Origin: an uncultured Pyrinomonadaceae bacterium
Lineage (GTDB): Bacteria; Acidobacteriota; Blastocatellia; Pyrinomonadales; Pyrinomonadaceae
Direction of reading: 5' to 3'
DNA length: 24,000 bases
NCBI GenBank assembly: GCA_964244835.1
Contig: CAXTKJ010000069.1
Coordinates: 1 to 24,000 of the forward strand
Shown: in pieces, positions 11,185 to 23,886 of the stretch
How positions within the stretch are numbered: position 1 is the first letter of the stretch
How the letters are laid out: every line of letters starts with the position of its first letter
Translations under genes and position numbers: made by a program
The notes under the pieces: generated by a model
The model's input: only the letters and a program-made list of their open reading frames with translations
Database searches by the model: none
What the model was told of the DNA's origin: nothing

Positions 11185-11853
11185 TTACTTTCCTTTCACT
11201 GGTAATTCGATTTTGAGTTTTTTTGGATTGTATTCATAGGCTCTTGTTTCTTGGCTATAAATCTTTTCCAAATTCAGCAGTCCTTTTTTTGACTCGAAAC
11301 GCAAAATAAGTCCATTAACATCTAGCCAAAATTTAGATTGTGAATAAGCTATCTTTCCTTTATCGCTTTCATCTGAATCTGAAATTTTAAATGTGTAGAA
11401 GTTTGTAAACAATTCAGCCGATTGATTGTTTAATTTTACGTCTTCAACCGTAAATTTTCTTTCTATTACGCCTGACAAGCCGGATATACCGGTACCTTCG
11501 CACCATTTATTCGACTGCTTCCACTCGCCATCGTTTTCTTTGCAATAATAGTTTTCGCCGATTTGAAAATATTCTTTTCTGTTTGTTCGGTCGGTGAGTT
11601 TTTTAACTTCCAAATAATGTCTTTTATCAGGCACAAGATATTCGTCGGTAATTCTCGTTGTGCTGTTTAGTTTTCCGTCCTCAAAATATTCTTTTTGACT
11701 TGTAATCCGCCGTGAAATCTCAGACATTGGTTTATAAGCATCTCGAATTGGCTGCCAAAACTTTTCTTCAGGAACTTCCTTTGTTTGACTGAACGCATTT
11801 ATCGTTGCGCCAAAACAAAAAATCACAAGTAATATGCAATTCTTAACTTTCAT
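11185..11853 (-). CDS. Hypothetical secreted protein, AT-rich gene
   Basis: Lies in ORF 11185..11877. I prefer the ATG at 11853 (MKVKNCILLVIFCFGATINAFSQ, a signal peptide). This start overlaps the stop of the upstream DUF433-like reading frame (atgaaagttaa). No homology was recognised. Confidence 0.6.
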   Translation of the reverse strand: MKVKNCILLVIFCFGATINAFSQTKEVPEEKFWQPIRDAYKPMSEISRRITSQKEYFEDGKLNSTTRITDEYLVPDKRHYLEVKKLTDRTNRKEYFQIGENYYCKENDGEWKQSNKWCEGTGISGLSGVIERKFTVEDVKLNNQSAELFTNFYTFKISDSDESDKGKIAYSQSKFWLDVNGLILRFESKKGLLNLEKIYSQETRAYEYNPKKLKIELPVKGK

Positions 11854-12094
11854 AATTTTCAGATTCTCCAACTTCACTCAATTTTTTTTCTCCAATTTTT
11901 CTTTCTAAATCATAAGCAAAAACCGCCTGCAGATCTTCCCGCGTCAAACGTGGATAATTTTCCAAAAGCTGTTCCTGCGTCCAACCGCTTGCTAGCCTTT
12001 CGACAATAAATTCAACCGACAGCCGCGTTCCTTTAATCGTCGGTTTGCCGAGCAGGATATTTTAATCTGAGACGATTTTATTTTGCCAATTCAT
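11843..12094 (-). pseudogene. DUF433-family (antitoxin-like HTH) gene with an in-frame TAA at codon 11
   Basis: The minus strand reads ATG(12094) MNWQNKIVSD-TAA(12064-12062)-NILLGKPTIKGTRLSVEFIVERLASGWTQEQLLENYPRLTREDLQAVFAY..., ending at the stop at 11843-11845. The GKPxIxGTR and YPxLTxED motifs are DUF433 hallmarks. The stop falls where the family usually has DP. Confidence 0.6.
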
Positions 12095-12221
12095 ACTTCT
12101 ATTTCTCTACCACGATGATTTTAATTGAAGGCGGCGCGGATAACAATAATTTTGGCGGAAAACGGCGAATTTCGATTTTAAGCGTAATGATTGCCGCCGA
12201 TTGGCGGTATCAGGAACGCTT

Positions 12222-12431
12222 TGCAAATTAAGTTTTCCGTTCTGCAAATTAAATTTGCACATCTACGAATTGAATTTGCAAACGTGCAAATTAAATTCGC
12301 AAAGTTACATATTAAATTTGCATGCTTACAAATTAAATTTGCAGAGCTACATATTGAATTTGCACGTTTACAAATTAAATTTGCACGCTTACAAATTCAA
12401 TTTGTCGGCAAATAAATTGAATTTGCACGTC
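12222..12431. repeat. Ten head-to-tail 21-bp units, each a 17-bp palindrome T(G/A)CAAATT-A-AATTTGCA plus a 4-nt variable linker
   Basis: Unit starts are at 12222, 12243, 12264, 12285, 12306, 12327, 12348, 12369, 12390 and 12411, an exact 21-bp phase. The right half-site AATTTGCA is exact in 7 of 10 units. The first and last two units are the most degenerate. The array ends 71 nt upstream of the ATG at 12503. Confidence 0.95.
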
Positions 12432-12502
12432 GTGTAAAAGTGATTATTCGCGGGAAAAATCATCAACTAAATTAAAACCTAAACTTTCAGGAGACATAAA
12501 TT

Positions 12503-12871
12503 ATGGCTAAATCAAGACGTTTAACGAAAAAAGTGCTGCTCGAAGACATTGAAACTTACGCATCTTTGCAGGCAGTCGCGGGTTATAAACCGAGCAACGG
12601 CGACTACACGCTGGCTAATGTTACCGCCTCGCATACCAAAATGAACGCGAGCCAAACCGACGAAGCACAAAAACAGGACGCGCTCGACGCAGCGAAGGAC
12701 ATTTCGACCAACGACGAACGGGCGTTTCACAATATGATTTTGGGAGCGAAAACGCAGGTCAAGGCGCAGTTCGGCGAAAATTCCAACGAATTTCAAGCTC
12801 TCGGAATGAAGAAAAAAGAAGAATACAAAAGCGGCAGACGCTCGGCGAAACCGGCGGACGGCTCAAAGTAA
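12503..12871 (+). CDS. Hypothetical 122-aa protein, predicted mostly helical with a basic N- and C-terminus
   Basis: An ATG preceded by caggagacataaatt (AGGAG 8 nt upstream). The codon pattern looks coding, and a hairpin terminator follows. No family was recognised. Confidence 0.7.
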   Translation: MAKSRRLTKKVLLEDIETYASLQAVAGYKPSNGDYTLANVTASHTKMNASQTDEAQKQDALDAAKDISTNDERAFHNMILGAKTQVKAQFGENSNEFQALGMKKKEEYKSGRRSAKPADGSK

Positions 12872-12891
12872 TTTATAGCTTAAAATTGAGA

Positions 12892-12932
12892 GGCGGTGAA
12901 AACGAATTGTTCATACATTTCATTTTCACCGC
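12892..12932. terminator. Hairpin terminator between the convergent 122-aa and 243-aa genes
   Basis: ggcggtgaaaa (12892-12902) pairs with ttttcaccgc (12923-12932), followed by ttttataatttt. The loop is about 20 nt. Confidence 0.6.
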
Positions 12933-12951
12933 TTTTATAATTTTGAATTCC

Positions 12952-13683
12952 TTAATTTAGATTTTTCTGCCTTTCGTATTCCTCTTCGATTCTCGCAGAT
13001 TCTTTAGCGCAAGTCGTGATGTATTTACTGCCCGGCATTGAGTCATCAACGAATAAACACTGACTTTCTTCGTATTTTCCACGATTAAATTTATAGGTTG
13101 TTTGATAAGAAGAAGCGCAAGACCCGTGATTTCTGACGAAAATGTTTTTGTAACCGCTGGTCAAATTCTTTTTAACCAATAAAATTTCGCCGCCTGTATC
13201 TAAAAGTTTTTTGTAGCTGTTGCCGGATTTTTTGTAAATCCACATCTGGCAATTTCCAGTTGCACCGCAAAGAAAAAAATTTGCGCCGCGCACAACGAAT
13301 TCATTTATTCCGTCGCCGTTTAAATCAACAGTTTGATTGATATACAAAATGTCCTGACAATCGGAATCATCGCTGAATTCCAGATGGTTTTTAGCATCTT
13401 CATCAAAATCTTTCTGCTTTCTTAAATCATTCAGAACCGCCGACAAAATTTTGTTATTGCAGGTAAAGGCAGATTTCTTTTTGACGGCAGGCTGATTTTC
13501 AATCGGAAATTGCAAACTATTTCTTCTTATGTCTTCCCGAAAATTGCCGAAACTTCTGGTTTTAAATACTTCTTGAGTGTTCGGAAAAATCTTTTCAGTT
13601 TGCCGGTTAAATCTTTCCGCAATAACAGAACCGATTCCGAAAGACGACAATCCGATCAATAAATAGAAAAACCAACGTCGCAT
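12952..13683 (-). CDS. Hypothetical membrane-anchored protein with an FG-GAP/VCBS-like DxNGDG motif, AT-rich gene
   Basis: A 243-aa ORF with an N-terminal hydrophobic anchor (WFFYLLIGLSSFGIGSVIA). It carries VDLNGDGINEFVV and CGATGNCQMWIY motifs. Confidence 0.65.
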   Translation of the reverse strand: MRRWFFYLLIGLSSFGIGSVIAERFNRQTEKIFPNTQEVFKTRSFGNFREDIRRNSLQFPIENQPAVKKKSAFTCNNKILSAVLNDLRKQKDFDEDAKNHLEFSDDSDCQDILYINQTVDLNGDGINEFVVRGANFFLCGATGNCQMWIYKKSGNSYKKLLDTGGEILLVKKNLTSGYKNIFVRNHGSCASSYQTTYKFNRGKYEESQCLFVDDSMPGSKYITTCAKESARIEEEYERQKNLN

Positions 13684-22663: not shown

Positions 22664-22708
22664 AGTCTGGAGAGTCTGGAGTGTCTAGAGAGTCTGGAGA
22701 GTTTAGGT
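22664..22708. repeat. Tandem 9-nt repeat (AGTCTGGAG)n, left arm of the inverted repeat around the four-helix-bundle gene
   Basis: The units are agtctggag (22664), agtctggag (22673), tgtctagag (22682), agtctggag (22691) and a degenerate agtttaggt (22700). The arm begins 8 nt from the permease start codon (22656). Confidence 0.85.
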
Positions 22709-23071
22709 AATTTTTCGCAGATGTTGGGTCAATCCCATAATCATTCTTGAAACTTCATCCAACAAAACATATATTTTGTTGAAATCGGTCTCGCCCAGAT
22801 AAGATAAATCTAATGCGATGTATAAATGAGATTGGGTTTCGGCGATTGAGCCGTGCGCGATGTTTAGAAAATTTGAAAATTCTTTGTCCGAACGTCGTCC
22901 GTAACCTTCTACGATATTTGCCATAATCGAAACGCAGGAACGCCGTATCTGGTCACGCAATCCAAAGTCTTTTGCAAATTGCCCCTCACCAGTAATTTGA
23001 TAAACCAATCTCGTTGATAGTCTCGCTTTTTGCCAAGCCAAAATATCTTCAAACTTCTTAAATCCCGCCAT
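22703..23071 (-). CDS. Four-helix-bundle protein (23S rRNA intervening-sequence protein family, TIGR02436-like; homologous to DGR Avd)
   Basis: MAGFKKFEDILAWQKA...RDQIRRSCVSIMANIVEGYGRRSDKEFSNFLNIAHGSIAETQSHL matches the family pattern. I prefer the ATG at 23071, because the upstream 29 codons of ORF 22703..23158 (SLESLESLES) simply read through the repeat arm. Confidence 0.85.
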   Translation of the reverse strand: MAGFKKFEDILAWQKARLSTRLVYQITGEGQFAKDFGLRDQIRRSCVSIMANIVEGYGRRSDKEFSNFLNIAHGSIAETQSHLYIALDLSYLGETDFNKIYVLLDEVSRMIMGLTQHLRKIT

Positions 23072-23102: not shown

Positions 23103-23816
23103 CTAACCGATTTCCGACTCTCCAGACTCTCCAGACTCTCCAGACTTCCCAAACTCATCGCTTAAAACGCGACCATCTTTCAAGACAATCCGCCGCTGCG
23201 CTTTTTCGGCGAGAAAATTATCGTGCGTAACCAAAATCAAACTGACGTTATTTTTAGAATGAAGATCGGTCATCAAATCGAAAATATGCGAACCGTTGCG
23301 CGAATCTAAATTTCCCGTCGGTTCGTCCGCCAATAAGATTTTCGGTTGATTGGCAAAAGCGCGGGCGATGGCAACGCGCTGTTGTTCGCCGCCGGAAAGT
23401 TCGGTCGGGTAATGATGCCCGCGATTGGTTAGTTCGACATCTTTGAGTAAAAGATTGGCGCGGTCTTTCGCGTCTTTTAACCCTAAAATTTCCATCGGGA
23501 TCAGGATATTTTCAAACGCCGTCAAACTCGGAATCAGGTGAAATGACTGAAATATAAAACCGATTTTTTCGCTTCTGAGCTGCGCCAGATCGTCTTCCGA
23601 CATTGAAGTAACGCTTGCGCCGTCAATTAAAATTTCGCCGGAAGTCGGCGCGTCGAGTCCGGCGATTAAGCCGAGCAGCGTTGATTTGCCGCTGCCCGAC
23701 GCGCCCGTTACGGCGATAAATTCGCCGTCGGGAATCTCAAGCGAAACAGCATCTAAAATCGTTAAATCTTCCGTGCCGGAGCGAACGATTTTAGTTACAT
23801 TTTTTAATTCGATCAT
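23103..23816 (-). CDS. ABC transporter ATP-binding protein (MacB/LolD/YbbA-like)
   Basis: Has Walker A GASGSGKST, the signature LSGGEQQR and Walker B ILLADEPTGNLD. The C-terminal tail is encoded by the 9-nt repeat. Confidence 0.9.
   Translation of the reverse strand: MIELKNVTKIVRSGTEDLTILDAVSLEIPDGEFIAVTGASGSGKSTLLGLIAGLDAPTSGEILIDGASVTSMSEDDLAQLRSEKIGFIFQSFHLIPSLTAFENILIPMEILGLKDAKDRANLLLKDVELTNRGHHYPTELSGGEQQRVAIARAFANQPKILLADEPTGNLDSRNGSHIFDLMTDLHSKNNVSLILVTHDNFLAEKAQRRIVLKDGRVLSDEFGKSGESGESGESEIG
23111..23155. repeat. Tandem 9-nt repeat (CTCCAGACT)n, right arm and reverse complement of the left arm
   Basis: Perfect units at 23120, 23129 and 23138, flanked by degenerate copies. It overlaps the last 15 codons or so of the ATPase gene (tail GESGESGESEIG). 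Confidence 0.85.
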
Positions 23817-23820
23817 AGTT

Positions 23821-23886
23821 TAGTGGTGAGTGGTGAGTGGTGAGTTTTGGAGAGGTTTTTCACTCACCACTCACCACTCACCACTA
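23821..23886. repeat. Perfect 25-bp hairpin whose arms are three tandem copies of the heptamer GGTGAGT (STRR-like)
   Basis: tagtggtgagtggtgagtggtgagt (23821-23845) is the exact reverse complement of actcaccactcaccactcaccacta (23862-23886), with a 16-nt loop. It fills the gap between the upstream gene's stop (23888-23890) and the ATPase start (23816). Confidence 0.9.

Follow-up and report, generated by a model that had tools for sequence, protein, structure and literature searches.

Tandem arrays of 21-bp units upstream of a gene for a small basic protein in a Pyrinomonadaceae bacterium and at homologous loci in five phyla

The window analysed here is a stretch of 24,000 nucleotides (nt) from an uncultured Pyrinomonadaceae bacterium of the phylum Acidobacteriota (assembly GCA_964244835.1, contig CAXTKJ010000069.1, positions 1 to 24,000 of the forward strand). 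It contains at positions 12222..12431 an array of ten 21-bp units, to which no strand is assigned, followed by a gene for a basic protein of 122 amino acids (aa) at 12503..12871 on the plus strand. As far as the comparison of homologous loci indicates, the array and the adjacent gene for a protein of about 120 residues form a conserved two-part module which is present in five phyla, and in which the array would be the cis half and the 122-aa gene the trans half. A description of such an array/small-protein module was not found in literature searches. The reading put forward here, with chances that are considered to be about even, is that the array serves the adjacent protein as a platform for binding; this protein, which is basic and predicted to be a coiled-coil, would place one oligomer on every two helical turns and regulate its own promoter.

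The array and its companion gene

The ten units lie back to back, with starts at 12222, 12243 and so on up to 12411, and the number of phase slips is zero. Each unit consists of the core T[G/A]CAAATT-N-AATTTGCA and a variable linker of 4 nt. The commonest base of a column is shared by 9-10 of the ten units in most core columns and by 4-5 of them in the linker columns. When up to two mismatches were allowed on both strands, the motif had 17 matches in the window, every one within the array, compared with a mean of 0.25 in 100 dinucleotide-preserving shuffles of the same 24 kb, none of which reached 17 (0/100). Tandem Repeats Finder (TRF) reported the periods 21, 42 and 63, with higher scores at 42 and 63, and units 5-6 and 7-8 resemble a duplicated 42-bp block; a separate repeat search of the window again placed the copies in register at a spacing of 21 bp. 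The coordinates, the TRF result and the motif count bear out an earlier note on this DNA in its description of ten in-phase 21-bp units without a slip. Its further statement that each unit is a 17-bp palindrome holds in full for unit 2 only (12243-12259); units 3-9 have 6-7 of the 8 arm pairs complementary, and the outermost units 1 and 10 only 5/8. Taken together, the unit table and TRF delimit eight well-formed units, numbers 2-9 at 12243..12410 (no strand assigned), in which 6-8 of the 8 arm pairs are complementary; the array as a whole is best described as ten imperfect 17-bp palindromes, each with its linker. Copies of the motif outside the array, which would have pointed to a dispersed repetitive extragenic palindromic (REP) element or a MITE (a miniature transposable element with inverted repeats), number zero within the 24-kb window, and the layout of a CRISPR array, with unique spacers of ~26-40 bp, is not that of the array, whose linkers measure only 3-5 bp.

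The promoter-proximal end of the array differs from the rest. A special unit, GGCAAATAAATTGAATTTGCACGTC, is marked at 12407..12431 on the plus strand by the invariant columns of alignment A3, in which the block GGCAAnTTTATTnAATTnnnnCGTC (12407-12431) is kept in seven relatives whose other units diverge. This unit probably either overlaps the core promoter or represents a nucleation site.

Homologous loci were taken from genome and metagenome collections, from exact-protein look-ups and from one cultured Nostoc megaplasmid. Nearly every homologue has an array of its own before it, a layout seen at ~30 of the loci, with 7-20 units of 21 bp. To test the period, the best autocorrelation lag was determined for the 700 bp that lie upstream of the gene at 31 non-redundant loci, with 97 segments of the same loci as controls: the best lag was an exact multiple of 21 at 27/31 loci but in only 15/97 controls (binomial p ~3e-31). 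Three more loci gave a best lag of 62, namely L002 and L025, both of them clear arrays in which units of 20 and 21 bp are mixed, and L029, where the signal is weak; arrays are also visible at L042 (Nostoc), L043 and L045. Save for one 3-copy element, TRF detected nothing comparable with a 21-bp period in the remainder of the window or of the loci. While the period is conserved, the unit sequences are unrelated between lineages, as exemplified by AGATTA-N5-TAATCT in L007, AAACCAnTGGTTT in L009, TCACGAGGTTAGAACGTAATC in L012, TTTGCAT-N2-ATGACAA in L014, TCACAAGGCCTTGTGA in L031, TGCAAGCCGATGCATTCATAA in the Nostoc locus L042 and a GC-rich 42-bp double unit in L018. The base composition of the arrays spans 23-63% GC across lineages. 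No other neighbouring gene is conserved beside the arrays across phyla, so that the minimal module is the array plus the small gene. The family of the 122-aa gene is the only constant companion of such arrays in the five phyla, and since no other feature always accompanies them, its product is the obvious candidate partner. The earlier note had seen no adjacent regulator and had called the binding partner unknown, a statement which this constant association does not support.

The gene itself, delimited by homologue searches and by a structural model, had been taken for an orphan. This can no longer be maintained: 35 close homologues with 51-100% identity exist, a profile search of 1.84 billion representative proteins returned 594 clusters at 50% identity (E<=1e-3), nearly all of ~120 aa, and a second profile search gave 421 proteins, essentially all of which are labelled 'hypothetical'. 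Carriers of the family are found among Acidobacteriota, Bacteroidota (Chitinophagaceae, Prevotellaceae), Chloroflexota (Anaerolineae), Verrucomicrobiota and Cyanobacteriota. Informative domain fusions were not found among the family members; the longer homologues are open reading frames (ORFs) mis-extended into arrays or carry unannotated tails. Two JGI labels that call family members a 'GntR regulator' are unsupported, and neither KfrA_N nor any other helix-turn-helix (HTH) Pfam domain matched the 35 members at E<=1.

The 122-aa protein has an isoelectric point of 9.3, a net charge of +5 over residues 1-12 and a basic tail, GMKKKxEYKxGRR. AlphaFold2, run with the family alignment, gave a confident model with a predicted local distance difference test score (pLDDT) of 87.8, in which an ordered basic N-terminal arm is followed by a helix (9-24), a YxPxN loop, a helix of 54 residues (37-90), a short helix and the disordered basic tail. 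A continuous 3-4 hydrophobic seam runs along the long helix, and because a monomer could not bury most of it, the protein is likely to oligomerise as a coiled-coil according to this model.

Close pairs of loci illustrate how arrays and genes diverge. Between L020 and L021 the identity amounts to 86% in the array, 95% from the array to the ATG and 88% in the gene, and the sequence distal to the array is unalignable; the edge of this alignment appears to mark the boundary of the module. Substitutions between the two arrays fall in outer and linker columns, and the unit columns of the core ATTnAA are nearly invariant, whereas 4-fold-degenerate sites differ at 0.30. Furthermore, the homologous arrays of L002, L007, L009, L010, L012 and L016 have stops in all six frames. 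The stops at these six loci, together with the contrast between the core columns and the 4-fold-degenerate sites, support the earlier view that it is the repeat as DNA, and not a reading frame, on which selection acts, and the core columns are under purifying selection. A different picture is given by L043 and L045, whose proteins are ~90% identical (4-fold-site difference 0.18) and whose pre-array spacers are 91% identical. Despite these similar flanks the arrays are only 60% identical and the consensus unit has switched, being GTgatGaGtGaCAAtGgCGTT in the one and aCGggGtGgTGTAAtGgCGTT in the other. Whole arrays turn over in concert, and the sharing of array k-mers declines with protein divergence (rho = 0.35). 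In about half of the 26 arrays compared, the unit was significantly more dyad-symmetric than its column-permuted controls. Two variants of the half-site are combined in many arrays and sometimes occur in both orientations (L002, L007, L014).

Promoter-like sites were found between array and gene in several clades. L006, L007 and L024 have TTTACA-N17-TATATT in this position, L017, L030 and L025 share the block TTGCGG...TAGAAT, and the Prevotellaceae loci possess a TAnnTTTG -7 box. In three clades the arrays lie upstream of recognisable promoters. Tandem promoters of the Bacteroidota type, one per unit, had been considered for the window. This proposal fails on three counts: the host belongs to another phylum, the corresponding sequence TAAATTTG, supposed to be in each unit, is present in only 4/10 of them, and even in the Bacteroidota homologues the units do not contain TAnnTTTG, which is found once, downstream of the array. 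The suggestion of ten hairpins in a 5' leader fares no better, given the promoter match between array and gene in the three other clades and a predicted RNA fold which consists of long-range unit-to-unit pairing and not of ten local hairpins. A terminator-like site between array and gene was found neither in the window nor in L007, L030 and L042.

Possible modes of action

If the protein reads its own array, each 21-bp unit would be occupied by one dimer or higher oligomer. Two turns of B-DNA measure 21 bp, so that the bound oligomers would all come to lie on the same face of the helix and touch their neighbours, and the ten units could nucleate a cooperative filament or a wrapped complex of ~210 bp which ends at or over the promoter of the gene. 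The outcome would be a steep, self-limiting autoregulation, most simply an autorepression, and the complex may have an additional structural or titration role. Binding of DNA by the protein, the choice of this array as its target, the oligomeric state and the sign of the regulation are all inferred from the features described above. The earlier proposal of a cooperative platform for a dimeric or oligomeric binder agrees with the dyad symmetry, seen in about half of the arrays, and with the strict two-turn period. In addition, binding of the protein to its own array is the most economical explanation, since the period is fixed at two turns, the unit sequence drifts, the units within an array are homogeneous and the linkage is exclusive.

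Several observations weigh against this reading. The 122-aa protein is only a putative binder of DNA, or of nucleic acid at all: its sequence has no match in Pfam, NCBIfam, PHROG, PADLOC or PDB, a Foldseek search with the model gave no significant match in PDB or BFVD, and neither an HTH nor a ribbon-helix-helix (RHH) nor a winged-helix element can be recognised. The linkage of array and gene would also be expected if the array only drove expression of the gene via another factor. The homologue L005 is without an array, no promoter could be located in the clade to which the window belongs, and the dyad symmetry of the unit is non-significant in about half of the 26 arrays. Moreover, L011 and L012 share only 15% of their array 7-mers although their proteins are 84% identical, and the differences between these proteins are scattered. 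Residues 76-110, where the protein is most strongly conserved, are unchanged between lineages with wholly different arrays, and for this reason a specificity determinant cannot be named; a search for specificity-determining residues in close pairs with different arrays yielded scattered differences only.

Among the alternatives, one is that the array is a regulatory element which is read by an unlinked host factor, or which acts via DNA shape through in-phase bending or wrapping around RNA polymerase, and that the small protein is not the binder. The position of the arrays directly upstream of promoter-like sites and the missing DNA-binding fold would suit this explanation, as would the core AATT-N-AATT, which is common to relatives of the window's clade that differ at outer positions, as is predicted for a conserved host factor. 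It is nevertheless judged to be unlikely. From lineage to lineage unit sequence and GC content differ wholly, yet the 21-bp rule holds throughout and the linked gene remains the same, so many unrelated host factors would have had to adopt one geometry at one gene; GC-rich arrays such as L018 and L031 cannot use A-tract curvature, and the switch of the consensus between L043 and L045 took place within nearly unchanged flanks. A second alternative, for which the odds are decidedly low, acts at the level of RNA: transcribed 21-nt units would bind, antagonise or be processed by the small protein, as in type III toxin-antitoxin systems or in a protein sponge. Tandem direct repeats immediately 5' of a small gene, which diverge together with the protein, do resemble the loci of the ToxIN, CptIN and TenpIN type (PMC3401426), several of the loci adjoin toxin-antitoxin or defence genes, and the predicted folding of the window array is stronger than that of shuffles on both strands (z = -4.8 and -7.8). 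Such excess folding is, however, expected from palindromes alone. In type III systems the repeats are 31-62 nt long and present in 1.9-5.6 copies (Table 2 there), a terminator lies between repeats and toxin gene and the promoter is located upstream of the repeats (PMC3401426); here the units measure 21 bp in 7-20 copies, no terminator intervenes and the promoter-like sites are downstream of the arrays. The toxins of those systems are the endoribonucleases ToxN, CptN and TenpN, whereas the window protein is predicted to be all-helical and has no match in PADLOC or Pfam. By the defining features given for type III (PMC3401426) the module does not belong to that class. Furthermore, half-sites in both orientations within one array, as in L002, make no sense for an RNA unit, a period of exactly two DNA turns would be a coincidence, and Rfam at gathering thresholds gave no match for the window and 13 loci.

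The interpretation of the array as the relic of a centromere or of an iteron origin, left behind by an integrated mobile element, had already been raised in the earlier note and is regarded as very improbable. Tandem 21-bp units with internal dyads do recall sopC, parC and plasmid iterons, and the array lies in a low-GC patch next to which toxin-antitoxin genes have been inserted in relatives. However, genes for ParA, ParM, TubZ and Rep are absent from the window and not conserved across the loci, the module sits in a conserved chromosomal synteny between a radical-SAM gene and an SDR gene, and neither a set of 2.9 million viral contigs nor phage records yielded a homologue, the only one on an extrachromosomal element being that on the 1-Mb Nostoc megaplasmid. 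The purifying selection on the core columns also speaks against a decaying relic. Hardly any credence is given to the array as a coding sequence for a heptad-repeat peptide. It is true that 21 bp equal seven codons, that two plus frames of the window array are open (LQIKFAx and YKLNLHx) and that gene callers have extended ORFs into such arrays (P0285, with RHQDASL repeats). But neither the frame nor the strand is consistent from locus to locus, different lineages have unrelated unit sequences, and as a general explanation heptad coding is refuted by the sister arrays with stops in all six frames.

To return to the binding of the protein to its own array: if this holds, the family would constitute a new and widespread group of DNA-binding proteins, with at least 594 clusters at 50% identity in five phyla, all of which are unannotated now. 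Recognition would follow a geometric rule, one oligomer per two helical turns, with a sequence specificity that drifts fast. Nature would thereby offer a library of orthogonal operator/repressor pairs for synthetic biology, as well as a clean system for the concerted evolution of binding-site arrays and their reader, and intergenic tandem repeats which gene callers have mis-translated as heptad-repeat N-termini would be accounted for. A bolder extension, tentatively proposed and rather less than probable, is a wide new class of chromosomal 'array-reader' modules. In these, coiled-coils of ~120 residues belonging to a new fold class would polymerise with a 21-bp step on private arrays, array and specificity would co-evolve fast as arrays turn over in concert, hundreds of orthogonal pairs would exist and the role would go beyond autoregulation. 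Such a role could be that of a chromosomal landmark, of a titration device or of a partner of the STAND NTPases that adjoin the module in many Acidobacteriota, and it would have no described counterpart. With Nostoc sp. UHCC 0926, whose homologue is in NZ_CP117772.1 (about 965.9 kb), a cultured carrier is available in which the hypothesis is directly testable.

Relation to known systems

Small proteins encoded beside a tandem array that overlaps their own promoter are familiar from plasmid partition, for instance ParR/parC of R1 and pSK41, omega and its heptads of pSM19035, ParG/parH and TubR/tubC. Centromere-binding proteins of this kind combine cooperative higher-order nucleoprotein complexes with autoregulation. 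The par-type systems always include a partition NTPase and reside on plasmids or phages, and their DNA binders are RHH or winged-HTH proteins. What the present module shares with them are iterated sites near the promoter of the adjacent gene, at ~30 loci. In contrast, an adjacent NTPase (ParA, ParM, TubZ), an RHH or HTH fold and a location on a plasmid or prophage are all missing here. A similar relation exists to the iterons of plasmids and phages (R6K, RK2, pPS10, F, P1, lambda ori), which are units of 17-22 bp with a period of ~21-22 bp, so that the bound proteins occupy one face; some iteron units, those of lambda ori for example, contain a dyad of their own. An initiator (Rep or O) and an AT-rich unwinding element are required by iterons, as are DnaA boxes in most cases. 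The window array corresponds to them in its tandem units with a period of about two helical turns, but no Rep-like gene is linked to it or to the arrays across the loci. An identical geometry is found in the ARG boxes of ArgR, 18-bp palindromes 3 bp apart, whose centres are thus spaced by 21 bp and lie on the same side of the helix. However, there are only two ARG boxes per operator, the box sequence is conserved and ArgR, a hexameric winged-helix protein, is unlinked.

KfrA of the IncU plasmid RA3 offers a further comparison. This protein of 355 aa is an alpha-helical, coiled-coil, oligomerising autorepressor with a mapped N-terminal HTH; its operator comprises five repeats of 9 bp that overlap its own promoter, and repression depends on how many repeats there are and how they are oriented (PMC7783346). 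In addition, KfrA interacts with proteins of the ParA/ParB type (PMC7783346). A helical coiled-coil, here a predicted one, and a tandem-repeat array by the own promoter are common to both, and the layouts are compatible. The differences concern the size of the window protein (~120 aa), in which neither an HTH nor KfrA_N was detected, the arrays with their 7-20 units of 21 bp, and the chromosomal, stand-alone nature of the module. By analogy, it may work like KfrA, ParR/parC and omega; membership in these families fails on the NTPase, the RHH/HTH fold, the plasmid location and the KfrA_N domain.

Further features of the locus and of homologous loci

In the window the array is situated in a divergent intergenic region, with a DUF433 gene on the minus strand and the 122-aa gene on the plus strand, whose ATG follows 72 bp after the end of the array. 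Between the array and the ribosome-binding site lies a short inverted repeat, GATTA...AATC (12442..12461, plus strand), with 5 predicted pairs and 1 compensatory change. Equivalents in L003, L019 and L020-L022 vary in sequence and keep their self-complementarity. This element might, as a weak candidate, be a hairpin of the 5' untranslated region or a second operator. The ribosome-binding site AGGAGA, read from the sequence at 12489..12494 on the plus strand, is placed 8 nt 5' of the ATG, and its GGAG is conserved in alignment A3. Downstream of the gene, a terminator-like hairpin, GGCGGTGAAAA ... TTTTCACCGC followed by TTTTAT (12892..12938, plus strand), was likewise read from the sequence; its loop exceeds 8 nt and it was therefore missed by the terminator scan. 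If real, it would make the 122-aa gene monocistronic.

The DUF433 gene (11878-12094, minus strand; Pfam E = 1e-20) has an in-frame TAA after codon 10, which means either a pseudogene or a sequencing error. Its product was considered as the array binder and rejected in view of this stop and of its absence at the other loci. Both genes and the array belong to a low-GC patch at 11200-13600 (35-38% vs ~50% in the flanks), which also holds a gene for a secreted 230-aa protein and a 243-aa XAC2610-related gene; in relatives the same place is taken by differing toxin-antitoxin inserts (PIN, ParE/YoeB). The remaining genes are ordinary chromosomal content, namely Ada, PGI-like, GH38-like, two radical-SAM proteins, SDR, prolyl oligopeptidase, a tricorn-like peptidase and a MacB-type ABC transporter, and Pfam scans of the window genes revealed none for ParA, ParB, ParM or Rep. 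The locus is syntenic with that of a Pyrinomonadaceae metagenome-assembled genome (protein identity 76%), the common order in Pyrinomonadaceae being a radical-SAM HMPTM gene, a gene for a secreted protein of 200-230 aa, an insert that varies, then the array followed by the small gene, with the SDR gene lying further downstream.

At eight acidobacterial loci (L007, L017, L020, L021, L024, L043/L044, L045) a gene for an NB-ARC-TPR STAND NTPase lies immediately upstream of the array. It is on the same strand and ends ~430-500 bp before the ATG of the small gene (~580 bp in L017). The N-terminal effector domains are SIR2 in L007, DUF4062 in L017 and TIR in L043/L044; the assignment for L021 rests only on the similarity of its C-terminal tail to L007. 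These NTPases look like anti-phage proteins of the NLR type. A link to defence islands as a general rule was discarded, as the neighbours in other phyla are housekeeping genes and the link is clade-specific or facultative.

Gene callers run or invent ORFs across the 21-bp arrays, and artificial heptad-repeat peptides such as RHQDASL at the N-terminus of P0285 are the consequence; further ORFs have been called over the arrays of L037 (3378-3881) and L017 (3800-4375). These heptad-peptide ORFs are a systematic annotation artefact of the array module. The upstream region of L005 (3400-4000) contains several differing short GC-rich hairpins and no periodicity. In L025, GC-rich palindromes resembling REP elements or MITEs, including an inverted pair of GCCCTGAAGGGGCGAAAT, occupy the stretch from -380 to -165 relative to the ATG, between array and promoter block, and this insertion shifts the array ~300 bp further from the gene. 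Just 3' of the small gene of L017 (4396-4490) there are three direct repeats of 21-22 bp (TTAAGAGCGAGGGGCACGCG) and then an inverted copy, an element that looks like a REP or a terminator and is unrelated to the upstream array. In the Nostoc locus L042 (pn1), ~1.5 isolated array units (AGTGCAAGCCGATGCATTCACAATG) at 2459-2490 are found ~220 bp upstream of the main array and could be a looping partner or a remnant.

Two other repeat structures occur near the end of the window. A gene for a four-helix-bundle protein of the 23S_rRNA_IVP family (22706-23071, minus strand) is inserted between the MacB permease and the ABC ATPase genes, in a gap that is filled by a YoeB/Phd toxin-antitoxin pair in the syntenic locus L002. 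On either side of the gene there are tandem repeats of 9 bp, inverted relative to each other, (AGTCTGGAG)x4 at 22664-22702 and (GACTCTCCA)x3.4 at 23116-23146, the RNA of which could form a stem of ~30 bp enclosing the gene. Finally, inverted heptamer tandem repeats, (AGTGGTG)x3.4 and (CACTCAC)x3.6, lie 15 nt apart at 23822-23885, upstream of the ABC ATPase gene, and together make up a long hairpin.

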